A stretch of 64,000 nt of DNA from Actinomycetes bacterium (GCA_024639145.1 JAHEIZ010000014.1:4543-68542), one strand, 5' to 3'; shown: positions 8,693 to 58,255, numbered from the stretch's first letter. Program-made: numbers and translations. Notes: generated by a model from the letters alone, not told the origin.

Positions 8693-11401
8693 CTACTTCG
8701 CCGAAGCCGCGGTCTTCTTGGCGGCCTTCTTCGCAGCCGTTTTCTTGGTGGCCTTCACGACGCGTGCCGTGGTCTTGGCAGGCGCCTTCTTGGCCGTCTT
8801 CTTCACGGCACGCTTGGCCGTCTTCTTCACCGGCTTGCCTTCGAGCGCTTCCTTGGAACGACGTTCGGACAGCAGGTCGCTCGCTCGCTCGACGCTGACA
8901 GTCATGGGGTCATCAGCTACGCGCAGCGAGGCATTGGTCTCGCCGTCGGTGACGTACGGGCCGAAGCGGCCTTCCTTCACCACGATCGGCTTGCCACTCG
9001 TCGGATCATTGCCGACCTCGCGCAGCGGTGCCTTGGCCGCGCCGCGACCGCGCACCTTCGGCTGAGCAAACAGCTCGAGAGCCTTGGCAAGATCAACGGT
9101 GAAAATCTCGTCCTCACTGGTGAGCGAACGCGAGTCGGTGCCCTTCATCAGGTACGGGCCGTAACGGCCGTTCTGCGAGGTGATCTCGACGCCATCAGCG
9201 GGGTCGGTGCCGACCACGCGCGGAAGGCTGAGCAGGCGCAGTGCGTCGTCGAGGGTGATCTCACCAAGGTTCATGTCACTGAACAGTGATGCGGTGCGCG
9301 GCTTTGCTGACTTCGGAGATCCCTCGGGCAGCACCTCAGTGACATACGGGCCGTAGCGACCTGACTTCGACATGATCTCCAGGCCGGTGTCGGGGTCGAC
9401 GCCGAGAAGGCGATCTCCCGATGGCATGGCAAGAAGTTCCTCGGCCAGCTCAGCTGTGAGCTCATCGGGCGCAGTTCCGACGGGGATATTCGCCCGCTCC
9501 TCGCCGCGTTCGACGTAGGCGCCGTAGCGTCCGACGCGAAGGTACGCATCGGTGCCCTCGATCGGCGTGATCGCAATCTCTCGCGCATCAATTGCTCCGA
9601 GATCCTCGGTCAGTGCCTTGATGCCCGGGAACTGGCCGTTGACGCTCTCGCCGCCGCGCCAGAAGGCTTCGAGCTGCTTGACGCGATCAGTCTCGCCGGC
9701 AGCGATGAGGTCGAGTACTTCTTCCATGTTTGCCGTGAACTGGTAGTCGATGAGCGAGGTGAAGTGCTCCTCGAGTAGTCGGATCACCGAGAACGCTGTG
9801 AAGCTGGGAACGAGCGCCGAGCCCTTCTTCCAGACGTATCCACGATCGACAATGGTCGACATGATCGATGCGTAGGTCGATGGGCGACCGATGCCGAGCT
9901 CTTCGAGACGGGCAACCAGCGAAGCCTCAGTAAATCGCGCCGGCGGAGTCGTGTTGTGGCTCGCGGGGTTGAGCGAGTTGGCGTGCACGAGCTGGCCCTC
10001 GGCCATATTCGGCAGCTCGCGCTCGCGCTCGTCGTCGTCGAGGCTCTCCTCGGTGATGTCCTTGAGTGCCGCAAGGAAACCGGGGAACACGATGACAGTG
10101 CCCGAGGCGCTGAACTCGGCGTCCTTGCCATTCGTGGCGACGGCGCCGACCTTGACGGTCGTAGTGGCAATCTTCGCGTCGACCATCTGCGAGGCGACCG
10201 TGCGCTTCCAGATCAGCTCGTAGAGGGCGAACTCGTCACCGTGGAGTTCCTTGGAGACCTCACCGGGTGTGCGGAAGACATCACCGGACGGGCGAATGGC
10301 CTCATGTGCCTCCTGCGCGTTCTTGACCTTGCGGTCGTAACGGCGCGGAACCTCGGAGACGTACTCGGGGCCGTACAGTTCGCGCGCCTGATTGCGTGCG
10401 GCATTGAGAGCTTGATCCGACAGCGTGGTGGAGTCGGTACGCATGTAGGTGATGTAGCCGTTCTCGTACAGCGACTGCGCCACGCGCATGGTGCGCTGCG
10501 AGCCCCAGCGCAGGCGTTTGGAGGCCTCCTGCTGCAGTGTCGAGGTCATGAACGGCGCCGACGGGCGGCGAGTGCCGGGCTTCTGCACGACCGAGCGCAC
10601 CGTGAAGTCGGAGCCGATCAAGTGATTGGCGAGCTCATTGGCCGTGCGCTCATCAAGAAGTACGACGCTGCCACCTTTGAGCACGCCCTGCTCGTCGAAG
10701 TCCTTGCCAGTCGCGACGCGAACGCCGTCGACTGAGCTCAACTTCGCATCGAAGTTGCCCGGGGCGAACTCGGCGAGGATGTCCCAGTAGTTGCCGCTGC
10801 GGAATGCGATGCGCTCGCGTTCACGATCAACGACGAGGCGCACCGCGACCGACTGCACGCGGCCTGCCGAGCGAGCCTCGCGACCGATCTTCTTCCAGAG
10901 CACCTCGGAGACCGGGTAGCCGTAGAGACGGTCGACGATACGGCGAGTCTCCTGCGCGTCGACGAGCTGCATGTCGAGATCACGCGGGTTGTTGACCGCG
11001 GCCCGGATGGCCTCCGGGGTGATCTCGTTGAACACCATGCGCTGGACGGGAACCTTCGGGCGCAGCACCTCCATGAGGTGCCAGCTGATGGCCTCGCCCT
11101 CGCGGTCCTCGTCAGTGGCGAGAAGAAGTTCATCGGCGTCCTTGAGAGCCTTCTTGAGTTCGGTGATGGTCGCCTTCTTGGAGTCATGGACGACGTAGAT
11201 GGGCTGGAACTCATCATCGACATTCACGGCCAGCTTCGACCACGGCTTCTTGCGATCGGCTTCGGGAAGCTGGGAGGCCTTGGCGGCGAGGTCGCGGATA
11301 TGGCCGACCGAGGCCAGGACCGTGTAGTCGGGGCCGAGGTAGCCCGCGATCTTCTTGGCCTTGGCCGGTGACTCGACGATCACCAGGGTCTTGTGCGCCA
11401 C
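8693..11401 (-). CDS. topA: DNA topoisomerase I
   Basis: Toprim N-terminus (LVIVESPAKAKKI), a catalytic Tyr region (YITYMRTDS), and four C-terminal GR(Y/F)G(P/A)Y repeats in place of Zn fingers. It ends in a Lys/Ala-rich basic tail, as is usual in actinobacterial TopA. Confidence 0.96.
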   Translation of the reverse strand: MAHKTLVIVESPAKAKKIAGYLGPDYTVLASVGHIRDLAAKASQLPEADRKKPWSKLAVNVDDEFQPIYVVHDSKKATITELKKALKDADELLLATDEDREGEAISWHLMEVLRPKVPVQRMVFNEITPEAIRAAVNNPRDLDMQLVDAQETRRIVDRLYGYPVSEVLWKKIGREARSAGRVQSVAVRLVVDRERERIAFRSGNYWDILAEFAPGNFDAKLSSVDGVRVATGKDFDEQGVLKGGSVVLLDERTANELANHLIGSDFTVRSVVQKPGTRRPSAPFMTSTLQQEASKRLRWGSQRTMRVAQSLYENGYITYMRTDSTTLSDQALNAARNQARELYGPEYVSEVPRRYDRKVKNAQEAHEAIRPSGDVFRTPGEVSKELHGDEFALYELIWKRTVASQMVDAKIATTTVKVGAVATNGKDAEFSASGTVIVFPGFLAALKDITEESLDDDERERELPNMAEGQLVHANSLNPASHNTTPPARFTEASLVARLEELGIGRPSTYASIMSTIVDRGYVWKKGSALVPSFTAFSVIRLLEEHFTSLIDYQFTANMEEVLDLIAAGETDRVKQLEAFWRGGESVNGQFPGIKALTEDLGAIDAREIAITPIEGTDAYLRVGRYGAYVERGEERANIPVGTAPDELTAELAEELLAMPSGDRLLGVDPDTGLEIMSKSGRYGPYVTEVLPEGSPKSAKPRTASLFSDMNLGEITLDDALRLLSLPRVVGTDPADGVEITSQNGRYGPYLMKGTDSRSLTSEDEIFTVDLAKALELFAQPKVRGRGAAKAPLREVGNDPTSGKPIVVKEGRFGPYVTDGETNASLRVADDPMTVSVERASDLLSERRSKEALEGKPVKKTAKRAVKKTAKKAPAKTTARVVKATKKTAAKKAAKKTAASAK

Positions 11402-17697: not shown

Positions 17698-19118
17698 CGC
17701 CCTCCCTCCGCTGGCAGAGTGCGCTCCACTGCAGCACGCCATTTGCCCATGAAGTGTGCCGCACGATCGGAACTCCAGCGCGGCTCGTACACGTGTTCCG
17801 GGCTCCAGTCGATCGTCGGTACTGAGTCCTGTGGCCGGATCGCGAGCCGACCCAGCGCAGCGGCGCCGAGTGCAGTTGCATGAGCGGAGGGGTAGACCTC
17901 AATCGGAAGCTGAAGGATGTCGGCCTGCGTTTGCATCAGCACGGCCGAGCGGGTCAGCCCGCCATCGACTCTAAGTGAGCGCAACGGCTCGCCGAGGTCA
18001 GCGGCACATGCGGCCGCGAGATCCGCGATCTGCGCCGCGATGCCTTCGAGCACGGCACGAATGAGCTGCCCGCGATCGGTCGCCAGGCTCATCCCGCTGA
18101 ATGCCGCTTTTGCATCGGCTCGCCACCAGGGGGCAGCGAGCCCGGCGAGTGCGGGCACGAAGGAGACATTGCCGCTGTCCGGTGCCGCAGCAGAGTCGAT
18201 ATCCCGAGCGTCAGAGATCAGGCCGAGTTCCTGCAGCCAGCGAATTGCTGATGCAGCCGTGAATACCTGGCCGTCAATGCAGTACTTCGACTCGCCTCGG
18301 ATTGTCCAGGCCACCGATGTCGTCAAACCATTCGTCGAGCGCGGGGCGGCAACGCCCGTGTTCATCAGTAGGAACGCACCAGTGCCGTAGGTGCACTTCG
18401 CTTCTCCCACCTCCAGGCATCCCTCCGCAAGAAGTGCAGCCTGCTGATCGACGATCACTCCGCCGACAGCTATCGAGCCGCCGAAGGCACTTGTCTCACC
18501 GATGAGTGCATCGCACGAAGTAATGCGCGGCAGAGCTTCGTCTTCAAGATTGAAATATCCGAGTAGCTCGTCATCCCATGCGCGCGAATCGAGATTCATG
18601 ATCAGCGATCGGCTTGCGGTCGACACGTCAGTGACGAATTCCCCGGTGAGGCGATGCAGCAACCATGAATCGGACGTCGTCACGACTCCCTCGCGAGTGA
18701 GGTTCTCGCGAATCCAGGTCATCTTCGGGGCGGAGAAATAGGGGTCGAGCACCAGACCGGATTGCTCGGCGATGACATCGGCCCGTGAACGAAGCCGATC
18801 GCACACTGACTGTGCCCTGCTGTCCTGCCATACCAACGCGGTAGTGAGCGGCTCACCCGTGGCGGGATCCCAGGCCAGAACTGTTTCGCCCTGGTTCGCT
18901 AGCGAAATCACCTCGATGGGTACGCCGGCCTCGTCGATTGCGCGACGTCCTGCGATGAGAATCGATTCGAGTAACTCGCTCGGGTCTTGCTCGACAGCCC
19001 CGTCAGCCAGGTATTGCGGGCGAACCGGCTCCTCTGCCAGAGAAAGAACCGTGCCCGCCTCGTCGACAACGATTGCCTTGGTGCCCGAGGTTCCCTGATC
19101 GATGGCAAGGACGCTCAC
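17694..19118 (-). CDS. FGGY-family carbohydrate kinase (glycerol-kinase-like)
   Basis: Has the N-terminal phosphate-1 motif (LAIDQGTSGTKAIVVD) and the C-terminal VDGGLTRSAVLMQTQADIL motif typical of GlpK/FGGY kinases. I place the start at GTG 19118. The track's 103 extra N-terminal codons overlap the divergent helicase gene and look non-coding. Confidence 0.85.
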   Translation of the reverse strand: MSVLAIDQGTSGTKAIVVDEAGTVLSLAEEPVRPQYLADGAVEQDPSELLESILIAGRRAIDEAGVPIEVISLANQGETVLAWDPATGEPLTTALVWQDSRAQSVCDRLRSRADVIAEQSGLVLDPYFSAPKMTWIRENLTREGVVTTSDSWLLHRLTGEFVTDVSTASRSLIMNLDSRAWDDELLGYFNLEDEALPRITSCDALIGETSAFGGSIAVGGVIVDQQAALLAEGCLEVGEAKCTYGTGAFLLMNTGVAAPRSTNGLTTSVAWTIRGESKYCIDGQVFTAASAIRWLQELGLISDARDIDSAAAPDSGNVSFVPALAGLAAPWWRADAKAAFSGMSLATDRGQLIRAVLEGIAAQIADLAAACAADLGEPLRSLRVDGGLTRSAVLMQTQADILQLPIEVYPSAHATALGAAALGRLAIRPQDSVPTIDWSPEHVYEPRWSSDRAAHFMGKWRAAVERTLPAEGGR

Positions 19119-19136
19119 GTCCGTACTCTCGCATAG

Positions 19137-21443
19137 TTGGCGTACGTTGATGCGATGGATGTCCTGAGTCGGCTCGCCGTCGGTCGCGCTGACCGACTCG
19201 TGCACTCCGAGCGCATCCCGGCCCGCACGGCCCGGCTTGCTGACTGGCCCGATTGGCTGGCACCGGAGATTCGCGATGCGTTTACCGAGCGCGGCATCGA
19301 TCGACCATGGATCCATCAGGCGGAGGCCGCGAACTTGGCGCACGGCGGCCAGCACGTGGTGCTTTCCACCGGTACGGCCTCGGGCAAGAGCCTCGGCTTC
19401 GGAATGCCCGTGCTCCAGGCGATCCATGACGGGCTAAGTGCTCCGAATGGTCGAGGTGCCACTGCTCTCTACCTCTCGCCCACCAAGGCCTTGGCGAATG
19501 ACCAGCTGCGATCCCTCTCAGGGCTCGGGCTCCCCTGGCTTCGTGCCGCCACCTATGACGGCGATACCGCTGTCGAGGCTCGCAACTGGGCGCGCAGTCA
19601 CGCGAACTACGTGCTCACCAATCCGGATCTCATTCACCACTCGATGCTCGGCTTCCATCAGAGCTGGGCACCATTTCTCAGACGCTTGCGCTACATCGTC
19701 ATCGATGAGTGCCACGCGTATCGGGGAGTATTCGGAGCTCACGTGGCTGAGGTAATTCGCCGGCTGCGCCGGATCTGCGAGTCGTACGGCGCCGCTCCGA
19801 TCGTTATCTGCGCATCGGCCACCGTCGCCCAGCCCGGTGATGCCGCAACGCGACTCGTCGGCTCTCCTGTTGCGGAGGTGACCGACGACGGTTCACCCGC
19901 GGGTGAACGTGTAATCGCCCTCTGGGAGCCGGAGCTCACCGCATTCACTGGCGAGAACGGCGCGCCGATCAGGCGCACTGCGACAGCGGAGTGCGCAGAC
20001 TTGCTCGCCGACCTGGTAGTCGAAGGGGCACAGAGCCTGGCATTCGTACGCAGTCGCAAGGCCGCCGAGTCGGTCGCAGTGATGACACGAGACCTTCTTC
20101 TCGATGTCGATCCCTCACTCACCGAATCCGTAGCGTCGTACCGCGGCGGCTACCTTCCCGAAGAACGGCGTGAGCTTGAGTCTCGCCTTCGCTCCGGAAG
20201 CCTGCGTGCGCTCGCCACGACCAACGCACTCGAGCTCGGTATCGACATCAGCGGGCTCGATGCTGTCATCACCGCCGGGTGGCCGGGGACTCGGGCATCG
20301 CTGTGGCAGCAGTTCGGTCGGGCAGGTCGGAGCGGAGCACCGGCACTGTCGATCTTCATTGCACGCGATGAGCCGCTCGACACCTACCTCGTGCATCACC
20401 CAGCAGCAATGCTCGGCCGACCTGTCGAGGCCAATGTCTTCAATCCCGAGAACCCCTATGTGCTTGCACCTCACTTGTGCGCCGCTGCATCGGAGCTACC
20501 GCTGACTGCTGACGATGCCGTGCGCTGGTTCGGAACCGGCTCACTTGCCCTGCTCGATTCACTCGTAGCCGACGGCTTCCTCCGCAAGCGCCCCACCGGC
20601 TGGTACTGGACCCGCCGAGATCGTGCGAGCGATCTCGCTGACCTTCGCGGCACCGGTGGGCCGCCGGTTCGCATCGTGGAGGAGGGCACCGGACGCATTC
20701 TTGGCACGATGGATGTCGCGGCAGCGCATGCCAACGCTCACCCTGGTGCCGTCTACATGCATCAAGGAGTGAGTCACCTCGTCACCTCCCTCAATCTCGC
20801 GGACTCCGTTGCAACGGTCATCGAGCAAGACGTCGACTACACCACATCAGCTCGCGAGGTCAGCGACATCCGCATTCTCGAGGAACTTGAGCGAGTGACC
20901 ATGGGTGAAGCGACCATGAGCTTCGGTCGCGTGCACGTGAGCTCACAAGTGGTCGCCTTCATGCGACGTCGAGCCATCACGGGTGAGCTCCTCGGCGAGG
21001 AGGCTCTCGACATGCCGGTACGCGAACTCGAGACCGCTGCGGTGTGGTGGACATTGAGTGACGGGCAGATCACCGGCTCAGGGGTGGAGGTCACGGAGGT
21101 TCCGGGTGCTGCCCATGCGGCCGAGCATGCATCGATCGGCATGCTGCCGCTGTTCGCCACCTGCGATCGCTGGGATATCGGTGGCGTATCCACTGCTCAT
21201 CACATCGACACAGGTCGCATGACTGTCTTCGTCTACGACGGTCTTGCCGGCGGCGCGGGTTTTGCCGAGTACGGGTACCACCACGCGCGCGAGTGGCTTA
21301 CGGCGACGCGAGTATTGATCGCGGAGTGCTCATGCGAGAGCGGTTGCCCCGCGTGCATCCAGTCACCGAAGTGCGGCAACGCCAACAATCCGCTCGACAA
21401 GCCCGGAGCGATTGCCTTTCTGGATCAGCTGCTCAGTCAGTAA
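19137..21443 (+). CDS. DECH-box helicase with C-terminal DUF1998 zinc module (YprA/MrfA-like; 'helicase/secretion neighbourhood' helicase)
   Basis: Has motif I TGTASGKS, motif II DECH, motif III SAT, and the C-terminal 4-Cys cluster CSCESGCPACIQSPKCGN. The start may be ATG 19155 rather than TTG 19137. Confidence 0.9.
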   Translation: MAYVDAMDVLSRLAVGRADRLVHSERIPARTARLADWPDWLAPEIRDAFTERGIDRPWIHQAEAANLAHGGQHVVLSTGTASGKSLGFGMPVLQAIHDGLSAPNGRGATALYLSPTKALANDQLRSLSGLGLPWLRAATYDGDTAVEARNWARSHANYVLTNPDLIHHSMLGFHQSWAPFLRRLRYIVIDECHAYRGVFGAHVAEVIRRLRRICESYGAAPIVICASATVAQPGDAATRLVGSPVAEVTDDGSPAGERVIALWEPELTAFTGENGAPIRRTATAECADLLADLVVEGAQSLAFVRSRKAAESVAVMTRDLLLDVDPSLTESVASYRGGYLPEERRELESRLRSGSLRALATTNALELGIDISGLDAVITAGWPGTRASLWQQFGRAGRSGAPALSIFIARDEPLDTYLVHHPAAMLGRPVEANVFNPENPYVLAPHLCAAASELPLTADDAVRWFGTGSLALLDSLVADGFLRKRPTGWYWTRRDRASDLADLRGTGGPPVRIVEEGTGRILGTMDVAAAHANAHPGAVYMHQGVSHLVTSLNLADSVATVIEQDVDYTTSAREVSDIRILEELERVTMGEATMSFGRVHVSSQVVAFMRRRAITGELLGEEALDMPVRELETAAVWWTLSDGQITGSGVEVTEVPGAAHAAEHASIGMLPLFATCDRWDIGGVSTAHHIDTGRMTVFVYDGLAGGAGFAEYGYHHAREWLTATRVLIAECSCESGCPACIQSPKCGNANNPLDKPGAIAFLDQLLSQ

Positions 21444-21927
21444 TGGGAAGGGTCGCGAGGTCACCTTCGATGACCGCGCGATCATCGTCATCGAGATCAA
21501 TCGCCGCCGCGTAGGAGAGATTGCGTTCCGCACGCGCGGCTTCCATGTCGCCGAGCACACAGTAGGCACGCGCCATCGCCTCGTGAGCTGATGCGGGCAC
21601 GAAGGAGCCCACCTCGAACTCCGTGCAGATCTCGCTCGCGCGACGACCGTGATACAGCGACTGCTCACCCCGACCGAGAACTGCGTAGACGCGGCTGCAG
21701 AGCCACTCGCCGATCGCCCACTGCTCCGGGCCGCCGACCTTGCCCCAGTGCCAGCGACTCGCATGCGCCGCATGCACCATGGCATCGTCTTCCGCTGGAG
21801 TACGCGACTCCATGCCCATGAAATCCCACGTGAGATTGAAGAGTTCACTCGCGAGATTGCGCTCGCCCAGCGGCTCGAGCAGGGCCTTGTCATCGGGCGG
21901 AGGCGCGTCACTGAACATGCCGGTCAT
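21433..21927 (-). CDS. conserved hypothetical protein (helical, TPR-like by eye)
   Basis: Coding-like composition. The likely start is ATG 21927 (MTGMFSD...), preceded by CAGGTGG. It converges on the helicase gene with an 11-nt overlap. I recognise no motif. Confidence 0.55.
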   Translation of the reverse strand: MTGMFSDAPPPDDKALLEPLGERNLASELFNLTWDFMGMESRTPAEDDAMVHAAHASRWHWGKVGGPEQWAIGEWLCSRVYAVLGRGEQSLYHGRRASEICTEFEVGSFVPASAHEAMARAYCVLGDMEAARAERNLSYAAAIDLDDDDRAVIEGDLATLPITD

Positions 21928-21946
21928 CTTGCCACCTGTCTTGTCG

Positions 21947-22210
21947 CTAGCGGTATGCCTCGCGACGGTGAGCGACCTTTCGAATCTCGATGATCCTGAT
22001 CTCCTCGTCAATGGAGTACAGGATGCGATAGTCGCCTACTCGCACGCGGTAAACATTCGTGCTTCCGACCAGCGGCGTAGATCGCGGCGGGCGAGGATGC
22101 TCGGCGAGCAGCTCAAGCGCGGCTTGAATTCGGAGCCTGAGAACGCGATCGAATCGCTCGAACGACTTCTGGGCGCGCGGGAGAATGATGACGGCGTAGG
22201 GCCGTGTCAC
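21947..22210 (-). CDS. relE: RelE/ParE-family toxin
   Basis: 87 aa. The pattern (...LLAEHPRP...VYRVRVGDYRILYSIDEEIRIIEIRKVAHRREAY) is the RelE/ParE fold. It overlaps the antitoxin stop by 4 nt. Confidence 0.85.
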   Translation of the reverse strand: MTRPYAVIILPRAQKSFERFDRVLRLRIQAALELLAEHPRPPRSTPLVGSTNVYRVRVGDYRILYSIDEEIRIIEIRKVAHRREAYR

Positions 22211-22440
22211 TCGAGCCCAAGCTCACGCTTGACTTGCTCCCACGGGATTCCGATCTCGCCCTCCGTCTCGGCGAGGGTCTCGAGATCCATGTAGTCCTCG
22301 AGTCGCTCCACGACGTTCTCGAAGAGCTCGTAGTCGACGAGAACCGCAATGGGCTTGCCGTGCTTCGTCAGGTAGAGCGGTTCACCCGATCGACGTGTCG
22401 CGTCGACGACCTCCGCGAGGTTTTCCCGGACCTTGCTCAT
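22207..22440 (-). CDS. yefM: Phd/YefM-family antitoxin
   Basis: MSKVRENLAEVVDATRRSGEPLYLTKHGKPIAVLV is the YefM N-domain. ATG 22440 has an AAGGAG sequence 7 nt upstream. The track start at 22470 is probably too long. Confidence 0.85.
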   Translation of the reverse strand: MSKVRENLAEVVDATRRSGEPLYLTKHGKPIAVLVDYELFENVVERLEDYMDLETLAETEGEIGIPWEQVKRELGLE

Positions 22441-22454
22441 GGGCATCTCCTTCA

Positions 22455-22469
22455 TGTACGAATTGTACA
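22455..22469. promoter_or_regulatory. TGTACA-type inverted repeat, candidate YefM operator
   Basis: The minus strand reads TTGTACAATTCGTACATG, with TGTAC/GTACA arms just upstream of the RBS. The E. coli yefM-yoeB operator is built on TGTACA cores. Confidence 0.4.
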
Positions 22470-22478
22470 ATTGCTTGG

Positions 22479-22823
22479 TCAGTCCGAGGCATGTCCTGCC
22501 CTCGCCGTGACCTCGAGGCGGGTCTGCCCGAGCCAGCGCGTGATCGCGGGGGCAGGAAGGCCGACGGTCACGAGCGCCTCACCGCCCTCGGCAGAGCAGG
22601 CGAGCAGTTCGGCCCCGTTCGCGACCGCGATGTGTCCGGCGGCCGTGCAGGAATCGCCTGCGCTCGAGGCCGCTGCCAGTGCTGCGAGATCGGCCGCCGT
22701 GCCGGCATGCGCGTGAGCCAGGGCGAGACCGCAGAGGGAGATGCCGGCACCGCCGACGATCGCCAGGGTGCCGGCTAGAACGAGCGACAGCAGCAACGCA
22801 TATCCGCCATCGCGCGACTTCAT
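22479..22823 (-). CDS. TadE-like pseudopilin (Rv3654c-type, helicase/secretion neighbourhood)
   Basis: 114 aa with an N-terminal hydrophobic helix (GGYALLLSLVLAGTLAIVG). It is the last gene of the tad-like operon and overlaps the preceding gene by 4 nt. Confidence 0.7.
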   Translation of the reverse strand: MKSRDGGYALLLSLVLAGTLAIVGGAGISLCGLALAHAHAGTAADLAALAAASSAGDSCTAAGHIAVANGAELLACSAEGGEALVTVGLPAPAITRWLGQTRLEVTARAGHASD

Positions 22824-23203
22824 GGCGCCGACTCCAGCGGTGCGGTCGCCGACTGTGTGACGGTGAAGCCAAGTTCACGGAACACCGGGATCGGCAGTGA
22901 CACCTCATGCGCGGCAGTGATGACGACTTCGGCGCCTCGCGATTCGAGGGCGAGTTCAGCATCGGGAAGCGAGGCCTGCAGTCGCGACATCACGGAATCG
23001 GTGTCATCACCGCGCGCGATGAGTCGTGCACTCGTGCGCACCGCATCGCCCATCGCGAGTGCGGTGAAGCCGACACCCATGGCCCACATCAGCGCAGCCG
23101 CCACGAGCAGCAGGAGCGGAAGCACCAACGCGGCCTCGAGCGTCACACTGCCGCGATCGCGGTGCACCGAGCCACGACTCGGTGCACCGCAACGCCGGAC
23201 CAT
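22820..23203 (-). CDS. TadE/TadG-family pseudopilin
   Basis: 127 aa with a TadE N-terminal motif (DRGSVTLEAALVLPLLLLV). Confidence 0.75.
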   Translation of the reverse strand: MVRRCGAPSRGSVHRDRGSVTLEAALVLPLLLLVAAALMWAMGVGFTALAMGDAVRTSARLIARGDDTDSVMSRLQASLPDAELALESRGAEVVITAAHEVSLPIPVFRELGFTVTQSATAPLESAP

Positions 23204-23207
23204 GTCG

Positions 23208-23387
23208 TTACGCGCCGATGAACGAGAACGCGCTCTTCAGCACGCTCCAGATCAGGTCACGCACCGTGTTGCTGGTCAGCAGCTTGATCAGGATTCCGCC
23301 GAGACCTGCAACTGCCACGGTGCCAACTGCGTACTCGGCAGTGGTCATGCCGCGGTCATCCGAGAACCGAGCCTTGAGCTTGCGCAT
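23208..23387 (-). CDS. Flp-type pilin (DUF4244-like)
   Basis: 59 aa: MRKLKARFSDDRG/MTTAEYAVGTVAVAGLGGILIKLL... This is a Flp prepilin G/xxxxEY processing motif followed by a hydrophobic helix. ATG 23387 has a strong GGAGGA RBS. The track ORF (160 aa) is over-extended. Confidence 0.85.
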   Translation of the reverse strand: MRKLKARFSDDRGMTTAEYAVGTVAVAGLGGILIKLLTSNTVRDLIWSVLKSAFSFIGA

Positions 23388-23508
23388 ATTTCCTCCTCGC
23401 GTCGAGTGCGACCTCGTGGCCGCTTCTGAACGATCGCGAATCAGGACACTCAAGTGAAGGGTGCGCCGAGGTCTGTGGATACGCGTGCGAATTCGCGGTG
23501 CCTGTGAA

Positions 23509-24222
23509 TTACGAATGTAGGAGCTGTTCCGCGAAGGAGGCGATGATCGGGGCAACACCGATGAGAAAGAAGGCGGGGAGGAAGCAGGCAGCCAATGGTG
23601 CCACCGCGCGAACCCCTGCAGATCTGGCCGCAATCTCCACCCGCACCCGATGCTCGCGACGCGCATCGCTGCTCGCACCTGCGAGAACAACGGCCAACGG
23701 TGCGCCTGACTGAGCCGAGCGCGTCATCGCAGTCGCCCACGGGCGCATCACTGCATGTGTCGAGGACCATGCCTGTTCTGCGCTCGCGCCAAGTGCCAGT
23801 GCGCGCGTGACCTTATCGAGTTCGATGCCGAGTGGTGGCCCAAGCGCTTGGCCGACGGCACGGAGTGCCTCCGCAGGCGGCGTGCCGGCCTCGAGTATCG
23901 AGATCATCACATCGAGGCCATCAGCCAACTGGCGCTCCAGCGCCTGTCGAATCCGGCGAGTCTCCGCCGACTCAAGTCGACTCACTAGCCTCGGTACCAG
24001 AAGCACTCCGACAACGGCGAGGGGAACTCCGGGCATGACCCCGAGCATGCTCACGCACCCCAGTGCCACGAGTGCTGCTGCGGCAGCTCCCTTCTGGCTC
24101 GCGGTCAGGGAACTCCTGCGCTGCGTGGGAGCGGTGACAAGACGCTGCAACCGTGGCTCGGGGCGGCCGGGGATCAAGGTGAAGACTGACAATGCGACGA
24201 GCAGTGCTGCCACCGTGCTCAT
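23509..24222 (-). CDS. tadC: TadC-like type II secretion system F-family membrane protein
   Basis: Start ATG 24222 (MSTVAALLVAL...) forms an ATGA overlap with the tadB stop. It has a T2SSF-like helical domain between TM segments. The track ORF carries a spurious 104-codon extension. Confidence 0.8.
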   Translation of the reverse strand: MSTVAALLVALSVFTLIPGRPEPRLQRLVTAPTQRRSSLTASQKGAAAAALVALGCVSMLGVMPGVPLAVVGVLLVPRLVSRLESAETRRIRQALERQLADGLDVMISILEAGTPPAEALRAVGQALGPPLGIELDKVTRALALGASAEQAWSSTHAVMRPWATAMTRSAQSGAPLAVVLAGASSDARREHRVRVEIAARSAGVRAVAPLAACFLPAFFLIGVAPIIASFAEQLLHS

Positions 24223-24902
24223 AGCAGCATCTCGACTCGGCTGACGATGCGCGATGTCCACCAGTAGCCCAGCCCGGCAAGCGCGATTCCCGCGAGCAGG
24301 CACGCGATTCCCGGAAGAGTCCCGAGGAGCCAGCCCAATGGATTGACACCCATCAACATTCCCATCGCGATTCCGAATGCCGGCAGGAGCATCAGGATGC
24401 GGGCAGTTGCGCGAGGGCCGGCCAACTGAGCCGACAGCTGAACCCGGATGTCCTCCGCGATTCGCGCCTGCTCGGCCATGCGAGCAACCGATATGGCGAG
24501 TCCGCCCCCCTGTTGCTCGGACACTGACCAGCACGCAGCAAGCGGCGCGAGAAGCGGCATCCGCACGGCGTCCTGCCGAAGTGCCGCGGCGATATCGCCG
24601 TCGAAGCGCACGGCCCCGCTGGCCGCGGGCCAGACTCCTTCGCCCGAGGAAATCAGTGCTTGTTGTTGCGGCATGCCGGCGCTGAGGTCTGCCGCGAGTG
24701 TCGCCAGTGCTTCGATCGCACGCTTGCGCGCCTCATTCGCCTTCTGCTTCCGGGCGGCGATGCGCAGAAGGGAGGCCGGCAAGGATCCCCTCGCCGGAGC
24801 TCCTCGGACATCTCCGACGATCAGTTCAAGGCGATGCCCCGGGTCGGGGCGGATGGCCAAGAACACCGCAGCGGCGATGAGACCAGCCGACATCCAATTC
24901 AT
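24219..24902 (-). CDS. tadB: TadB-like type II secretion system F-family membrane protein
   Basis: 227 aa with an N-terminal TM, a cytoplasmic helical domain and C-terminal TMs. It has an ATGA overlap with the ATPase gene. Confidence 0.8.
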   Translation of the reverse strand: MNWMSAGLIAAAVFLAIRPDPGHRLELIVGDVRGAPARGSLPASLLRIAARKQKANEARKRAIEALATLAADLSAGMPQQQALISSGEGVWPAASGAVRFDGDIAAALRQDAVRMPLLAPLAACWSVSEQQGGGLAISVARMAEQARIAEDIRVQLSAQLAGPRATARILMLLPAFGIAMGMLMGVNPLGWLLGTLPGIACLLAGIALAGLGYWWTSRIVSRVEMLL

Positions 24903-26059
24903 CGTGACTCCACTCGATGACGACTGAGCCTCGCCAGAAAGCCGTCTGCATAATCGTCAACGCGCGTGATCCCGTTCGAGGTGACAGCTATCGGACGCAC
25001 CGTGGCACGTGCATCAGCACCTCGCTCGAGTGCGTAGATCCCTTGCACGACTCGCTGCCCGCTCGGAAGTCGCTCGACATGGACAACGCAATCCAGCCCG
25101 GCACAGATCAACGAGTGCACGGCCATTCGATCGAGACCCGCCATCAGGGCGAGGGCCTCGAGTCGCGCCGGCACATCATCGGCCGAGTTCGCGTGCACGG
25201 TTCCGCATCCGCCTTCATGCCCGGTGTTGAGTGCCGTGAGCAGCTCGACCACTTCAGCGCCTCGCACCTCACCGATGCACAGCCGATCGGGACGCATGCG
25301 CAGCGATTGCCGCACTAGATCACGCATGGTGATGACGCCGGCACCCTCGACATTCGCGGTTCGCGCCTGCATGCGCACCACGTGACCGCAGTGAGGCGTC
25401 AATTCAGCAGAATCCTCGACGAGAACCAATCGCTCGCTGTCGCCGATGCGCGAGAGCAGTGCACCGAGCACGGTGGTCTTTCCTGCGCCCGTGCCACCAC
25501 TGATGACGAAGGAGAGCCGAGAGTCGATGAGGTCAGCGAGGAACTCGCCCATGACCGATGTCACGGCGCCTGATTCACCCAGTTCCTGAAGAGTGAATCC
25601 GGATGCCCGCGGGATACGAATCGAGATTGCCGTTCCGTCTGAGGACAGGGGAGGGATGATCGCATGCAGCCGCGCACCGTTGGCTAGTCGCGCATCGACG
25701 AATGGCGCCGCTTCGTCGAGTCGTCGGCCGGCACTCGCAGCGAGACGTTGAGCCAATCGGCGCACTTCGTCCTCGCCGGTGAACGTGATGTCAGTGCGGA
25801 TGAGGCCGGAGCCCTCATCGATCCAGACGGAGTCCGGCGCATTGACCAAGACATCGGTGATCCCCGGAAGCCGTAGCAAAGGATCGAGGCGACCAGCCCC
25901 CAGTAGCTCTCGTCGAAGTACTTCGACAAGTTCGAGTACGGCACTATCGCCGAGCAGCACGCCTTCCTCGCGGAGGGCTGCGGCGACATGGGCCGGCGTC
26001 GCCTCTCCCTGACCGGCAATGAGTCGCGTGCGCACGCGCTCGAGGAGTGAGGGCGCCAT
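24899..26059 (-). CDS. tadA: TadA/CpaF-family secretion ATPase
   Basis: Has Walker A GGTGAGKTT, Walker B/Asp box (LVLVEDSAEL), and a His box (TGHEGGCGTVHAN). Confidence 0.92.
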   Translation of the reverse strand: MAPSLLERVRTRLIAGQGEATPAHVAAALREEGVLLGDSAVLELVEVLRRELLGAGRLDPLLRLPGITDVLVNAPDSVWIDEGSGLIRTDITFTGEDEVRRLAQRLAASAGRRLDEAAPFVDARLANGARLHAIIPPLSSDGTAISIRIPRASGFTLQELGESGAVTSVMGEFLADLIDSRLSFVISGGTGAGKTTVLGALLSRIGDSERLVLVEDSAELTPHCGHVVRMQARTANVEGAGVITMRDLVRQSLRMRPDRLCIGEVRGAEVVELLTALNTGHEGGCGTVHANSADDVPARLEALALMAGLDRMAVHSLICAGLDCVVHVERLPSGQRVVQGIYALERGADARATVRPIAVTSNGITRVDDYADGFLARLSRHRVESR

Positions 26060-26064
26060 GATTC

Positions 26065-27114
26065 CTAGGCCGCGAGAGCAGGGCGATGGCTCAGGTCGAT
26101 CTCCGCGCAGGCACGGAGCACGCTTTCGGGAATGCGCGGCAGCTGGCCATCGTCGACGAAGGGGGTACCGACGGGCAGGGAGCCGAGAATCGGGATGCCG
26201 AGAATGTCGCCGATGGCCTCGGGCCGAACGCCATGAGGACGCTCACGAACGACCACCCGAATGTCAGTGGCGAGCGCCGTGAGCTCCTCCAGGTAACGCG
26301 CAGCGGCTATCGCACCGCGCACCCGCGCACTGACGACGAGCACTACCGCGTGAGCTCGGCTGAGCACAGTTGCCGATGCGGTGCCCAGATCCCGCGGAAG
26401 ATCGACGACGGTGAGATCAAAGCCCCGACTGCCGGCATCGAGCACGGAGTTCCATGACTCGGGAGTTGCCTCGGGCGATCCCTCGCGATCCCAGGAGAGA
26501 ACAGCAGCACCCGACATGGTCGGCAGGGCCTGCCGGAAAGCGGAGGTCGCGAGCCGACCTCGAGTGTCGACCAGCTCGGGCCAGCGAACACCAACGGCGT
26601 TTTCGCCGCCCAGGGCAATGTCGATGCCACCACCGAGTCGGTCGCCGTCGATCAGCAGACTCGATCGACCATCGGCTGCGGACTGCACGGCGCAGGCGGC
26701 TGCGAGGGTTGATGCTCCGGCACCACCGGTCGCGGGCACGCACGCAATCAGGCGTCCGGCGCGTGAGGGCTCATCCGAGCATGACGTCAGCCTCTCGATC
26801 AGCCAGGACTCGGCATCAGGGAGGCAGGCAACGTGCTCGGCTCCGATCGACACGGCCACTCGCCAGGCGGTCGGATCCACTGAGTCGCCGGAGCCGCGTG
26901 TCACGAGGATCACTCCACTTCGTCGAGGCAAGTGATCGGCATCAGCCGAGCTCTCCACGTCAATGAGCACGAGTGGCGCCTGCGCCCAGCGGGTGCGCTC
27001 TGCGGCCGGATCCTCGGACACGTGAAGTTCCATGCCCGAAGCAGCCGAGAGCCGGGCACACTCCTCAATGAGCTCCGCATCGCGGCTGATGAGTAATGGT
27101 CGTGCGATATTCAT
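26065..27114 (-). CDS. CpaE-like / Ssd-like protein of the helicase/secretion neighbourhood (degenerate P-loop)
   Basis: Has an N-terminal receiver-like domain and a MinD/ParA-like domain. The P-loop position reads ATGGAGAST, with no lysines. ATG 27114 has a GGGAGG RBS. The track start at 27156 is 14 codons longer. Confidence 0.75.
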   Translation of the reverse strand: MNIARPLLISRDAELIEECARLSAASGMELHVSEDPAAERTRWAQAPLVLIDVESSADADHLPRRSGVILVTRGSGDSVDPTAWRVAVSIGAEHVACLPDAESWLIERLTSCSDEPSRAGRLIACVPATGGAGASTLAAACAVQSAADGRSSLLIDGDRLGGGIDIALGGENAVGVRWPELVDTRGRLATSAFRQALPTMSGAAVLSWDREGSPEATPESWNSVLDAGSRGFDLTVVDLPRDLGTASATVLSRAHAVVLVVSARVRGAIAAARYLEELTALATDIRVVVRERPHGVRPEAIGDILGIPILGSLPVGTPFVDDGQLPRIPESVLRACAEIDLSHRPALAA

Positions 27115-27232
27115 GAGGCCTCCCTGGTGATACTCGGAGCATCGATGCACGGACACACACGATCAATGCCTCAGCTCGACCTGTGGATGATGCGTGCGCC
27201 CCGGAGACCTGTGGACGAGGTAGCGTCAGCAC

Positions 27233-28039
27233 ATGACTTCAGGTGCCGTCTCTCGCGCGCCGATCGCCGCATTCTTCGACCTCGACAAGACGATCCTGGC
27301 CAAGTCGAGCTCATTCGCCTTCGCCCGTCCCTTCTATAAGGAGGGCTTGATCGGCCGCGCTGACGTCATCAAGAGTGCGTACGCGCAGTTCGTGTACCTG
27401 GCTTCAGGCGCTGACCACGATCAGATGGAGTCGATGCGCCAGTACATGTCGAATCTGGTCACCGGCTGGGAGGTCGAGAAGGTCCAGCAGATCGTGGCCG
27501 AGACCCTCGACACGATCGTCGATCCGATGGTCTACGAGGAAGCCCTCGATCTCATCGCCCATCACCGAATGCTCGGGCACCAGATCATCATCATCTCGTC
27601 ATCGGGCACCGATGTCGTCGAGCCCATCGGCCAGCGCCTCGGCGCAGACCTCGCTATCGGCACGCAGGTTGGCATCGAAGATGGGAAGTACACTGGCGAG
27701 ATTCTGTTCTACGCCTATGGCCCCGGGAAGGCTGAGGCGATGAGGAGCCTGGCCGTAGAGCGCGGCTACGACCTCGCTGAGTGCTACGCGTACTCCGACT
27801 CCTTCACCGACGTGCCGATGCTCGAGGCTGTCGGCCATCCGGTCGCCGTCAACCCTGACACTGAACTTCGCAAACTTGCAGTCGAGAACGACTGGCCCAT
27901 TCGCGACTTCGCGAAGCCGGTCGCGATGAAGAGCCGCATCGACAAGAAGCAAGCAGCGGCAGCAGGCGCCGGAGTTGCACTGGGTGCCGTCGCGCTGGGC
28001 ATTGCCTGGTACGCGCGACGCCGCTCGCTTCGCGCCTAG
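27233..28039 (+). CDS. HAD-IB family hydrolase (SerB-like) with C-terminal TM anchor
   Basis: Has HAD motif I FFDLDKT, motif II SSSG and motif IV YSDSFTD, with a C-terminal hydrophobic segment (AAAGAGVALGAVALGIAWY). Confidence 0.85.
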   Translation: MTSGAVSRAPIAAFFDLDKTILAKSSSFAFARPFYKEGLIGRADVIKSAYAQFVYLASGADHDQMESMRQYMSNLVTGWEVEKVQQIVAETLDTIVDPMVYEEALDLIAHHRMLGHQIIIISSSGTDVVEPIGQRLGADLAIGTQVGIEDGKYTGEILFYAYGPGKAEAMRSLAVERGYDLAECYAYSDSFTDVPMLEAVGHPVAVNPDTELRKLAVENDWPIRDFAKPVAMKSRIDKKQAAAAGAGVALGAVALGIAWYARRRSLRA

Positions 28040-28806
28040 ATCTCGACGGCCTTAGCGCCCATCGCCAGGGCGGTGGCAAACCAGGTGACGTACGCATTGA
28101 TGCCCTCCGCCGTTCCGGCCGAGTACTCGCGTATCGCAGCGACGTAGGCGGGTCGCCCGAGCTCGAACATCCCGTGCTCCGGAATGGTGAACAGTGACGG
28201 GTCGATTCCCTTGGATGCCATCACGAGCCGAACGCTCGCGCGTGCGACCAGGCCGCTGCCGATCTCGAACGGGCGAAGAGCCGAGAGCTCACCATGGACG
28301 ATCGCGGCGATCAGAAGCGCAGGCGAGGTCGACGTGGTGATCACAGTCGCCAGGCTCGCCATCCGAGGGCTGATCACGCTCGAGGGGGGAAGCAGGCCCA
28401 TGTTGAGCGGATCGCGCACCTCATCGCCACTGCGCGGCCGACCGCGCTCCTCGTCGGAGGCGAACCCCTGCGCGGCAATCGCATGCAATTCGGCGAGAAC
28501 CTGCAGCGGTGCGGTGGTCCAGGTGTCAACGAGTGCGGGAATCCTGCCCGTGAGCACCTGGGCATTACCGAGAATCCGACCCATCGGTGAGTCATCGACA
28601 ACCGCGGTGTCAGCGCCATCGATGGCTGCGGAGTCGCGGGCACCGCGCATGGCCGAGGCGGCAGCGACTTCAGCGGCCTTGGCCCGGATTCCCCTATCCC
28701 ACAGCACCGCATCGATCTCGTCGCGAGTGGCAGAGAGCAGACGTGATGACTGCTCCGAGAGTGGCAATCCGGCGAGCGGATCAGAGGTGCCGGGGCTGGT
28801 TGCCAT
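28036..28806 (-). CDS. conserved hypothetical protein with degenerate Fic-like motif
   Basis: 256 aa. Residues 171-189 (HGELSALRPFEIGSGLVAR) resemble the Fic core HPFx[DE]GNGRxxR but lack the catalytic His and several other motif residues. It overlaps the convergent HAD gene end by 4 nt. Confidence 0.45.
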   Translation of the reverse strand: MATSPGTSDPLAGLPLSEQSSRLLSATRDEIDAVLWDRGIRAKAAEVAAASAMRGARDSAAIDGADTAVVDDSPMGRILGNAQVLTGRIPALVDTWTTAPLQVLAELHAIAAQGFASDEERGRPRSGDEVRDPLNMGLLPPSSVISPRMASLATVITTSTSPALLIAAIVHGELSALRPFEIGSGLVARASVRLVMASKGIDPSLFTIPEHGMFELGRPAYVAAIREYSAGTAEGINAYVTWFATALAMGAKAVEI

Positions 28807-58131: not shown

Positions 58132-58255
58132 AAGCCCAGTAGGCGGGAGGTCGGACGGTTCATCAAGCGAACCCACCCGTACATCCACTATTGGGGGTGT
58201 AGGCCCCCATGCAGGCGAGTGTGAAGGACGCCCCGTCGACCACCGATGACATCCC

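Follow-up and report, generated by a model that had tools for sequence, protein, structure and literature searches.

Why a DNA helicase should be kept beside a pilus operon is the question that this locus raises. The locus lies in a 64-kb window (the whole stretch of DNA that we analyzed, 64,000 nucleotides), of which a preliminary description had recognized the actinobacterial "helicase/secretion neighborhood" and had called the joint function of its two parts undefined. That statement still holds, and a 2025 survey of 52,000 YprA-like helicases treats this branch as repair-related and files it under "no conserved genomic context". The locus type is already known, and the window adds a new member to it. 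Our preferred reading, to which we assign a probability of roughly 0.6, is that the helicase and the pilus genes belong to two distinct modules of the core genome, both ancient, whose tail-to-tail placement is a matter of inherited synteny, and that they do not make up one machine. The family assignments, the order of the genes, the conserved arrangement and the reciprocal losses are observed here directly; enzymatic activities and the task of the pilus are taken from homologs that have been studied.

The locus encodes an MrfA-type helicase and a Flp/Tad pilus

The preliminary description had assigned a helicase, a CpaE-like protein, TadA, TadB, TadC, a Flp-type pilin and two TadE-like pseudopilins to this neighborhood. 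All are present at the coordinates below, with scores above the curated cut-offs, including those of NF041390 and DUF4244. The models TIGR03817, TIGR03815, TIGR03819 and TIGR03816 all exceeded their curated cut-offs within 8 kb. In the following list, bit scores are given against the cut-off.

19137-21443, + strand: MrfA/YprA/SftH-type SF2 DNA helicase, 768 aa (TIGR03817 and Pfam)
21433-21927, - strand: conserved hypothetical protein, 164 aa (weak TPR-like signal)
21947-22210, - strand: ParE/RelE-family toxin, type II toxin-antitoxin (Pfam ParE_toxin, E = 5.4e-14)
22207-22455, - strand: Phd/YefM-family antitoxin (TIGR01552, E = 1.8e-12; PhdYeFM_antitox, E = 3.7e-15)
22479-22823, - strand: Rv3654c-family TadE/G-like pseudopilin (TIGR03816, 58.3 bits vs 51)
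22820-23203, - strand: TadE minor pilin, Rv3655c-type (NF041390, 54.3 bits vs 40; Pfam TadE)
23208-23387, - strand: Flp prepilin, 59 aa (Pfam DUF4244, E = 5e-19)
23509-24222, - strand: TadC platform protein (Pfam T2SSF, E = 8.5e-20); its own ATG overlaps the TadB stop
24219-24902, - strand: TadB platform protein (Pfam T2SSF, E = 2e-7); 4-bp overlap with the TadA stop
24899-26059, - strand: TadA/CpaF-type secretion ATPase (TIGR03819, 477 bits vs 373; Pfam T2SSE)
26065-27114, - strand: Ssd/TadZ-CpaE-like protein, putatively of ParA/MinD fold (TIGR03815, 293 bits vs 154)
27233-28039, + strand: HAD-IB hydrolase, Rv3661-like (TIGR01490, E = 4e-58), divergent from ssd

In an NCBIfam profile search the helicase scored 1162 bits with TIGR03817 (cut-off 874), and four Pfam domains were identified: DEAD (E = 9e-27), Helicase_C (E = 2e-14), WHD_HRQ1 and MZB/DUF1998. 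The SF2 core is complete, with motif I (GTASGKS), motif II (DECH) and Helicase_C, and is followed by the winged-helix domain and the C-terminal MZB domain, both above the Pfam cut-offs. Cys731, 733, 737, 740 and 746 of the C-terminal zinc-cysteine module are invariant in an alignment of 22 helicase sequences. Motif II differs from that of most close relatives, which carry DEAH at the aligned position. The B. subtilis YprA/MrfA structure (6ZNP) matched the helicase end to end (E = 2.8e-137, residues 19-743), and the domain architecture is common to MrfA/YprA and M. smegmatis SftH. An alternative start codon, the ATG at 19155, may apply.

SftH is the biochemically characterized actinobacterial ortholog, a 3'-to-5' ssDNA translocase, and Rv3649 is its homolog in M. 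tuberculosis (PMC3424565). The family is spread far beyond the Actinobacteria, and DNA repair is the role of its studied members (PMC3424565, PMC7797055). Rv3649 is dispensable, and M. leprae lacks SftH. Based on the biochemistry of SftH, the window helicase is probably a DNA-dependent ATPase with 3'-to-5' translocase/helicase activity, and by homology the module would act as a monomeric ssDNA translocase/helicase in DNA repair or processing, without MrfB. Unlike B. subtilis MrfA with MrfB, the window helicase has no adjacent MrfB-type DEDDh exonuclease. It is flanked by glpK and by the gene for the 164-aa protein, which has neither an exonuclease nor a PDB match, so the helicase is not half of an MrfAB pair. 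The absence of an MrfB-like partner had already been noted beside the helicase, and it extends to every ORF of the 64-kb window, none of which matched an MrfB/DEDDh-like exonuclease domain.

The minus-strand operon has the components that define a Flp/Tad (type IVc) system, namely a TadA ATPase, TadB and TadC, a Flp pilin with a G/XXXXEY site and TadE-type pseudopilins. TadA has GGTGAGKT as its Walker A motif and NTGHEGG as its His box, and both motifs are invariant. The Ssd-like protein scored well above the TIGR03815 cut-off, lacks a ParA-type domain in Pfam and has a P-loop (GGAGAST) from which the signature lysine is missing; its M. tuberculosis homologs have been described as septum-site protein Ssd (PMC3095998). 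The operon's strongest Shine-Dalgarno sequence (GAGGAGG) precedes flp, and the prepilin is predicted to be cleaved after G13 (...DRG/MTTAEY). TadE has a putative processing site at G/SVTLE, and the Rv3654c-like pseudopilin, which gave a weak match to Pfam Tad (PF13400), is without Glu at +5 and ends in an ARAG(P/Y) motif common to related loci.

This operon had been called complete, which is correct for the core genes but not for the prepilin peptidase. We found no TadV or A24-type peptidase among the ORFs of the 64-kb window; one is possibly encoded elsewhere, and tad clusters without TadV are typical of Actinobacteria (PMC4322843). By analogy with studied homologs, the Ssd/TadZ-like protein may mark the assembly site, and a prepilin peptidase encoded elsewhere would cut Flp at G/MTTAEY before assembly. 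A TadA hexamer on the TadB/TadC platform would then polymerize the 46-residue Flp pilin, with the TadE-like and Rv3654c-like pseudopilins priming or capping the fiber.

Comparison with known systems

The locus had been equated with Rv3649 plus Rv3654c-Rv3660c of M. tuberculosis, where Rv3660c is Ssd. This equivalence is borne out by the window proteins, which match profile models that carry the names of Rv3654c, Rv3655c and Rv3660c, and by the literature on Rv3649 (PMC3424565) and on Rv3655c-Rv3660c, annotated as tadE, flp, tadC, tadB, tadA and tadZ (PMC9531140). The gene order tadZ/ssd, tadA, tadB, tadC, flp, tadE, Rv3654c-like is common to both organisms, as are the convergent helicase, the HAD gene divergent from ssd and the wider backbone (topA ... 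acs ... recR-dnaX). In contrast, the ParE/Phd pair and the 164-aa gene between the modules, as well as a glp insertion upstream of the helicase, are features of the window. The helicase-tad adjacency is found in M. tuberculosis too, with PE/PPE genes between the two modules. Host-directed roles have been reported for M. tuberculosis Rv3654c and Rv3655c (PMC2864267); because the window comes from an environmental actinomycete, these roles do not transfer.

TadA/CpaF, TadB/TadC, the G/XXXXEY site of Flp, TadE/F and a putative TadZ/CpaE-like protein are common to the window and to the tad cluster of Aggregatibacter and the cpa cluster of Caulobacter. However, the window version is monoderm, lacks the RcpA secretin, RcpB/C, TadD and an in-cluster TadV, and has a degenerate P-loop in its TadZ-like protein. 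We regard the pilus module as a monoderm Flp/Tad (type IVc) system, orthologous to Rv3654c-Rv3660c and to tad-2 of Micrococcus luteus.

Conservation and loss of the helicase-tad arrangement

Any notion that the helicase and the tad genes form one operon is contradicted by their orientation, which the preliminary description had missed along with the genes that lie between them and the lack of a prepilin peptidase or com gene in the window. The helicase (+ strand) and the tad operon (- strand) are convergent both here and in all 62 related loci (62/62), and co-transcription is therefore impossible. TadA lies downstream of the helicase and convergent with it in 62 of 66 helicase-anchored genome loci. 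The adjacency has persisted across five or more orders of Actinobacteria, as well as on a Micrococcaceae-like contig (L104), and it is specific to TIGR03819-type systems: no helicase was nearby at 64 loci of other Tad ATPases (0/64), nor near any TadA relative of 47% identity or less.

The two modules sit within a conserved backbone of approximately 60 kb (holB-tmk-topA ... acs ... recR-dnaX). Its order is holB, tmk, topA, H+-PPase, STAS, helicase, tad, HAD, Fic-like, acs, crp and whiB, after which come ponA, asd, ask, recR and dnaX. In our sample of 80 genome loci, mostly from Streptomyces and Nocardioides, the STAS-helicase junction was retained in 79/79 and PPase in 77/80. The HAD hydrolase gene accompanies the tad operon, adjoining Ssd in 58 loci and missing together with tad in contig L081. 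These flanking junctions join genes for which a functional connection is not plausible, and they are equally conserved, so the helicase-tad junction is not special and the link that had been suggested between the two is weakened. In the window itself the STAS-helicase junction is broken by the glp genes inserted upstream of the helicase, and at two other loci (L021 and L056) mobile elements lie inside the tad operon.

Loss occurs in both directions among near relatives. Contigs L081 and L085, from two independent samples, encode a helicase (78-79% identical) but no tad or HAD genes. Both retain glpK-helicase on one side and Fic-RR-aldDH on the other, and a methyltransferase gene and an ABC-F gene stand in place of window positions 21434-28068. 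Conversely, contig L088 has intact genes from Ssd to the Rv3654c-like protein, a mature Flp core identical to that of the window and a cleanly missing helicase, with only 37 bp between the stop of the Rv3654c-like gene (10113) and a putative STAS start (~10151). Two Kribbella species have the helicase without tad genes within 10 kb. These near relatives argue against an obligatory joint machine, with the losses scored on contigs, so that the missing partner could sit elsewhere in those genomes.

Three minus-strand genes, encoding Phd, ParE and the 164-aa protein, separate the helicase from the tad genes. The phd gene is directly upstream of parE with a 4-bp overlap, as in a type II ParE/Phd pair, and the toxin gene is not present at related loci. 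The 164-aa protein gave nothing above threshold in NCBIfam, Pfam or PDB. It has 1331 homologs, yet 0/80 helicase loci carry the gene, which is a lineage-specific insertion. One homolog, in another genome, sits after NuoB/C/I-like genes. Tolerance of such insertions, here of the 164-aa gene and the two toxin-antitoxin genes, was counted in favor of separate modules, and the long survival of the adjacency, the competence pilus of M. luteus and the broken STAS-helicase junction of the window were counted against them.

The convergent 3' ends could couple the modules by regulation. Transcripts of the long minus-strand unit, which extends from ssd through the 164-aa gene, would continue into the helicase 3' end, or vice versa, and the antisense interference would make pilus and helicase expression mutually exclusive and so keep the genes tail to tail. 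In the window, twelve minus-strand genes follow one another up to the helicase stop, which the last of them overlaps by 11 bp. Gaps along this strand are mostly below 20 bp (the largest, 121 bp, is between tadC and flp), and at L082, L084 and L090 the last tad gene shares 16-26 bp with the 3' end of the helicase gene. No terminator-like site was found between the modules in a crude scan, whose consensus is poorly suited to high-GC Actinobacteria. However, the spacing from the helicase stop to the last tad gene, a noisy measure, differs between loci, with values of about -59 up to +390 bp, and insertions of 1-4 kb are tolerated. We consider such coupling very unlikely.

A defensive role, in which the helicase would be a DruE-like effector acting on invading or pilus-imported DNA, is more improbable still. 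SftH (MSMEG_6160) and its M. tuberculosis homolog can substitute for DruE beside DruH to give phage resistance, SftH bound DruH in pull-downs, and a toxin-antitoxin pair lies near the helicase in the window. However, SftH alone does not confer phage defense. The window helicase belongs to the repair-type branch and is without the insertions or nuclease fusions of the defense clades; no DruH-like or other defense partner is present at the locus, which is a stable core-genome site and not a defense island.

Micrococcus luteus and DNA uptake

In M. luteus, tad-2 (Mlut_18150-18190) is required for transformation and encodes the major competence Flp pilin, and by gene numbering the orthologous helicase Mlut_18140, with its metal-binding cysteines, directly adjoins it. 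The order tadA, tadB/C, flp, tadE/F, tadG-like is common to tad-2 and the window, with the helicase beside the distal gene, and the pilin core TAEY...LTS is the same in both. This common gene order, helicase neighbor and pilin core point to orthology with tad-2, in a comparison that draws on the published N-terminal fragment of M. luteus and on contig L104, not on the full locus. TadB and TadC are fused in M. luteus and TadZ is reported missing, whereas the window has separate TadB, TadC and Ssd/TadZ-like proteins. M. luteus further depends on comEA/comEC and on another cluster, tad-1, for transformation, and its prepilin peptidase gene (Mlut_05160) is located elsewhere. None of comEA, comEC, dprA or tad-1 was found within the 64-kb window.

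The preliminary description had proposed a DNA-uptake pilus with the helicase processing incoming DNA. Because M. luteus has the same pair, with a similar Flp that serves in competence, DNA uptake is a reasonable idea for the pilus, with a stronger basis than that description had known, although com genes are absent from the window; for the helicase such a role is only hypothetical. In a functionally coupled system the Tad pilus would capture DNA, and the helicase would pull in, unwind or process the incoming strand in the cytoplasm. Homologs of ComEA, ComEC and DprA are the only competence homologs found in M. luteus, and thus the uptake motor is missing from its set. We know of no report in Actinobacteria of ComFA, the Firmicute DEAD-box protein proposed as an analog of the helicase. 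A helicase that moves 3' to 5' along ssDNA, as SftH does, would suit this task, and the restriction of the adjacency to TIGR03819-type systems is consistent with it. Two independent EMS SNPs in Mlut_18140 were also listed among the R-mutants of M. luteus.

However, those SNPs were neither followed up nor reintroduced, and Mlut_14650 was given as the cause of the R4 phenotype. A further, indirect argument is that deletions made in 2015 covered the ORFs on either side of the tad clusters, and yet tad genes alone are listed as required. The convergent transcription, the loss of either partner in close relatives and the equally conserved flanks also count against coupling, as does the presence of the locus in genera without known natural transformation. 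We therefore judge functional coupling in DNA uptake to be possible but unlikely. The stronger claim, that the helicase supplies the cytoplasmic motor or processing activity missing from Tad-pilus-dependent transformation in Actinomycetota, as a functional ComFA analog, and that the pairing is kept for uptake, appears decidedly doubtful; if true, lineages without one partner would have lost or rewired competence. For two separate modules, studied homologs suggest that the pilus most likely serves in surface contact and possibly in DNA capture, as in M. luteus.

The locus and its components

All of the components that the preliminary description had listed were found within 19137-27114, with curated family scores and Pfam in agreement. 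Loci of this type are very common across Actinomycetota, M. tuberculosis, Streptomyces, and Micrococcus among them; the type was defined years ago by curated families, and its identification here was correct. What is new is the setting, an actinomycete lineage of freshwater or soil that has been poorly sampled, and a lineage-specific variant in which a toxin-antitoxin insertion lies between the two modules. The helicase belongs to TIGR03817, the "helicase/secretion neighborhood putative DEAH-box helicase" family. That name records the question of how helicase and pilus are related, which the literature has left almost untouched. The features, in a window of ~64% G+C, are as follows.

19137-21443, +, helicase, 768 aa (TIGR03817, 1162 bits; cut-off 874)
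21433-21927, -, conserved hypothetical protein, 164 aa; its stop and that of the helicase overlap by 11 bp
21947-22210, -, ParE toxin
22207-22455, -, Phd/YefM antitoxin
22479-22823, -, Rv3654c-family protein (TIGR03816)
22820-23203, -, TadE (NF041390)
23208-23387, -, Flp prepilin, 59 aa (DUF4244; processing site G/MTTAEY)
23509-24222, -, TadC
24219-24902, -, TadB
24899-26059, -, TadA (TIGR03819, 477 bits)
26065-27114, -, Ssd/TadZ-like protein (TIGR03815, 293 bits)

The helicase has the Pfam domains DEAD, Helicase_C, WHD_HRQ1, and MZB/DUF1998, a motif II that reads DECH, and a cysteine cluster (C731/C733/C737/C740/C746) that was invariant in an alignment of 22 sequences. Its residues 19-743 aligned with B. 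subtilis YprA/MrfA (PDB 6ZNP; E = 2.8e-137). In B. subtilis, mitomycin C damage is repaired by MrfA together with the exonuclease MrfB (PMC7797055). The earlier claim that no MrfB-like partner stands by the helicase held up: there was no DEDDh exonuclease among the ORFs of the 64-kb window, and the 164-aa neighbor had no exonuclease match. We expect the window protein to act as a 3'-to-5' ssDNA translocase for repair or processing without an MrfB partner. The M. tuberculosis SftH homolog, Rv3649, is non-essential, and the gene is missing from M. leprae (PMC3424565). A 2025 survey of ~52,000 YprA-like helicases assigned proteins of this kind to a branch that is related to repair and comes "with no conserved genomic context", and did not mention Tad (10.1101/2025.09.15.676423). 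Papers on Druantia and YprA prompted us to consider the helicase as a member of a defense system; in a Druantia III system, SftH can substitute for DruE beside DruH, and SftH by itself gives no phage defense (PMC13316683). We rejected this candidate because the window protein has the repair-branch architecture and no partner gene, and a defense role is unlikely.

The helicase had been described as lying next to a complete tad operon. The genes are all there; however, helicase and operon are convergent, so a shared transcript is impossible, three extra minus-strand genes separate them, and no prepilin peptidase was found among the ORFs of the 64-kb window (nor were comEA, comEC, or dprA). Within the operon, successive genes overlap at their start and stop codons or are separated by a few bases; the exception is a gap of 121 bp before flp, the gene with the best ribosome-binding site. 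No promoter-like sites came out of a scan of 18800-27500. The two terminator-like sites that it gave were both intragenic and fewer than in shuffled sequences, and the scan was uninformative.

The operon product would be a Flp pilus of the monoderm kind. The assembly site would be set by the Ssd/TadZ-like protein, in which the signature lysine is missing from the P-loop (GGAGAST), and TadA would drive assembly upon a TadB/TadC platform. A peptidase encoded elsewhere would cut the prepilin after Gly13 to yield a 46-residue pilin. The TadE-like protein, which has Glu at +5, and the Rv3654c-like protein, which does not, may prime or cap the fiber; a Glu-less +5 position has been proposed as a feature of tip pilins (PMC6370729).

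The three genes between the modules (21433-22470) had no counterparts in any of 80 related helicase loci, which marks them as a lineage-specific insertion. The 164-aa gene was considered as an MrfB remnant and rejected; its product has a sub-threshold TPR_12 match only, with neither an exonuclease nor a PDB match, and its family is large (1331 homologs) and sited elsewhere. In another genome a member follows NuoB/NuoC/NuoI-like genes, and one homolog (P0193) is fused to a NuoI-like ferredoxin.

Conservation of the pairing

We scored 80 helicase-anchored genome loci with the proteins of the window. The helicases were 59-63% identical to that of the window and came from GTDB species representatives, mostly Streptomyces and Nocardioides, with the deep-branching classes outside the sample. 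TadA was present in 62 of the 66 loci having at least 6 kb downstream of the helicase, convergent with it in every case and at a median distance of 3.2 kb. Flanking junctions of no plausible functional meaning were kept at least as well: the STAS gene lay directly upstream of the helicase and divergent from it in 79/79 loci, the pyrophosphatase was present in 77/80, the HAD gene adjoined Ssd in 58, and the Fic-like gene came next in 55. The helicase-tad junction is therefore unexceptional.

Two of the four loci without a standard TadA belong to Kribbella species, which have unrelated genes after the helicase, and in the other two the tad operon is broken up by a mobile element. The operon is prone to insertion of mobile elements and to rearrangement. 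A tyrosine-recombinase trio and an IS lie within it in a Streptomyces locus (L056, 13157-20151), an integrase island interrupts it in L021 (13152-15097), and an inversion splits it in the metagenome contig L094.

In a reverse scan of metagenome contigs anchored on TadA, the helicase was found beside TIGR03819-type systems only (L090, L092, L094, and L104). It was near none of the more distant Tad ATPases (<50% identity; 0/64 loci, of which 36 include 5 kb or more of flank).

Reciprocal loss of the two modules in near relatives

The main new result is that near relatives have lost one module or the other. Two metagenome contigs from independent sequencing runs, L081 and L085, represent the closest relatives in the sample and encode helicases 78-79% identical to that of the window. 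L081 retains glpK-helicase on one flank and, on the other, the Fic-like gene, the response regulator (89%), and the aldehyde dehydrogenase (97%). Between them, the stretch corresponding to 21434-28068 of the window (~6.6 kb, from the 164-aa gene and the toxin-antitoxin pair through the whole tad operon to HAD) is swapped for 2.95 kb carrying a Methyltransf_21 gene and an ABC-F gene. The shorter L085 supports the helicase, methyltransferase, and ABC-F side only. The helicase is full length in these tad-less relatives.

A third contig, L088 (TadA 67%, pyrophosphatase 87%, and topA 79% identical to the window's), has the converse arrangement. Its gene order is acs, Fic-like, HAD, Ssd, TadA, TadB, TadC, Flp, TadE, Rv3654c-like, STAS, pyrophosphatase, and topA. 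The STAS gene begins ~37 bp after the Rv3654c-like stop on the same strand (9718-10486), the helicase having been cleanly lost from between them. The tad ORFs remain intact, and contig and window have the same mature pilin core, TAEYAVGTVAVAGLGGILIKLLTS. The standard pair is kept at a similar distance in L082, L084, L086, and L087. Either module can thus persist at the site alone, although the losses were read at this site on contigs and the absent partner might lie elsewhere in those genomes.

The suggestion that the pairing reflects more than synteny is weakened, given that the junction (62/66) stands out from its neighbors not at all and that each module has been lost without the other. The evidence leans toward independence. 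We consider the helicase and the tad operon to be two independent modules (probability roughly 0.6), and inherited backbone synteny is the best reading of their tail-to-tail position.

Relation to the tad-2 locus of Micrococcus luteus and DNA uptake

For M. tuberculosis, the genes Rv3655c-Rv3660c have been assigned as tadE, flp, tadC, tadB, tadA, and tadZ (PMC9531140). Rv3660c has also been described as the septum-site protein Ssd (PMC3095998), and Rv3654c and Rv3655c as secreted effectors (PMC2864267). The M. luteus tad-2 cluster (Mlut_18150-18190; tadA, tadB/C, flp, tadE/F, tadG-like) carries the gene for the major Flp pilin and is required for natural transformation (PMC4322843). The published N-terminus of M. 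luteus Flp, AITAEYGILTLAAVGFAGVLAVVLTSP (PMC6370729), has a TAEY...LTS core in common with the window pilin, as does the pilin of L104, a very high-GC, Micrococcaceae-like contig. This shared core, together with the comparison with tad-2, identifies the window operon as the predicted ortholog of tad-2. The pilus may serve surface contact or, by orthology with M. luteus, DNA capture.

The preliminary description had proposed that helicase and pilus are coupled in DNA uptake. A helicase lies beside the competence tad-2 of M. luteus, no uptake motor is known from Actinobacteria, the substrate and polarity of the helicase fit DNA uptake, and the pairing is specific to TIGR03819-type Tad. If the two were coupled in this way, the helicase would be the import motor that is still missing from natural transformation of high-GC Gram-positives, and the coupling would bear on horizontal gene transfer in a medically and industrially important phylum. 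However, the two units are transcribed convergently, their junction is ordinary among its neighbors, and the independent keeping and losing of the modules points away from a joint uptake machine. Nor is there a direct helicase phenotype in uptake: two EMS SNPs (C1962653T and C1964134T) in the M. luteus helicase gene, Mlut_18140, were listed without follow-up, and the phenotype of one mutant was traced to a different gene (PMC8467076). ORFs flanking the tad clusters were also deleted in a 2015 study, which names only tad genes as required and so bears on the helicase indirectly (PMC4322843). We therefore regard coupling as unlikely, and a ComFA-like role of the helicase as the uptake motor of actinobacterial transformation as quite improbable.

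Regulation of the locus

Two features weakly suggest a regulatory link through convergent transcription. The helicase and minus-strand genes overlap at their 3' ends by 11-26 bp in the window, L082, L084, and L090, and the scan placed no terminator-like site between the convergent units of the window, but overlap with the last minus-strand gene is not general across loci. Overlapping convergent stops acting as a lock were rejected as a general cause, as spacing among loci ranged from approximately -59 to +390 bp (a noisy measure in high-GC DNA).

DNA-damage regulation of the helicase was likewise rejected, as a scan of the STAS-helicase and ssd-HAD regions gave no general signal. LexA boxes were found in the STAS-helicase spacer of 1/80 loci and the ssd-HAD spacer of 0/58, against a background of 2%. 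RecA-NDp-like promoters were present in 4/80 STAS-helicase spacers, three of them from Kribbella, and 0/58 ssd-HAD spacers. The Kribbella motif, CTGTCCGTGG ... TAnnCT, lies 5' of the helicase ~200 bp into the spacer (L008, L012, and L016), and a similar motif is found 5' of the helicase in one Nocardioides locus (L050). Kribbella is the genus without a tad operon after the helicase.

In the window, glpK (start ~19118, -) and the helicase (start 19137 or 19155, +) are divergent, with starts <40 bp apart (19112-19160); their promoters must therefore be inside the adjacent genes, or the transcripts leaderless. The corresponding starts in L081 are 32 bp apart.

The surrounding backbone

The window is a conserved stretch of actinobacterial backbone. 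In order, it has holB, tmk, topA, the H+-pyrophosphatase, and the STAS anti-sigma antagonist, then a set of glp genes as an insertion. Next come the helicase and the tad operon, with the HAD-IB hydrolase, the Fic-like gene, a response regulator of the LuxR type, and an aldehyde dehydrogenase after them, and these are followed by acs, crp, two ArsA-like ATPases, whiB, a class A PBP, asd, ask, recR, and dnaX. The nearest named record, the MAG GCA_051006695.1 at NCBI ("Candidatus Nanopelagicales bacterium"), is ~84% identical in nucleotides over 6.8 kb, and its genes are collinear with the window's from the 164-aa gene through to the pyrophosphatase. The HAD-IB hydrolase gene, divergent from ssd, lies with the sub-threshold Fic/DOC-like gene at 27233-28806. 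Because HAD was lost together with tad in L081, it may be a truer functional neighbor of the pilus genes than the helicase.

Several other genes were observed in the window. Among the ORFs examined, there was no obvious restriction partner for a C-5 cytosine DNA methyltransferase of 482 aa (1080-2528, -). An actinobacterial Holin-X family gene (34963-35352, +) lies directly 3' of an NhaA Na+/H+ antiporter gene, with no phage genes nearby. Between ask and recR is a second toxin-antitoxin-like pair (50915-51768, -), comprising a HepT-like RNase and an HTH-nucleotidyltransferase (MNT). A 1337-aa ORF (54361-58374, -) whose G+C by codon position is unusual (0.54/0.65/0.74) contains beta-propeller repeats (Rax2, Reg_prop) and an OmpA-like C-terminal domain, and probably encodes a large cell-surface protein.
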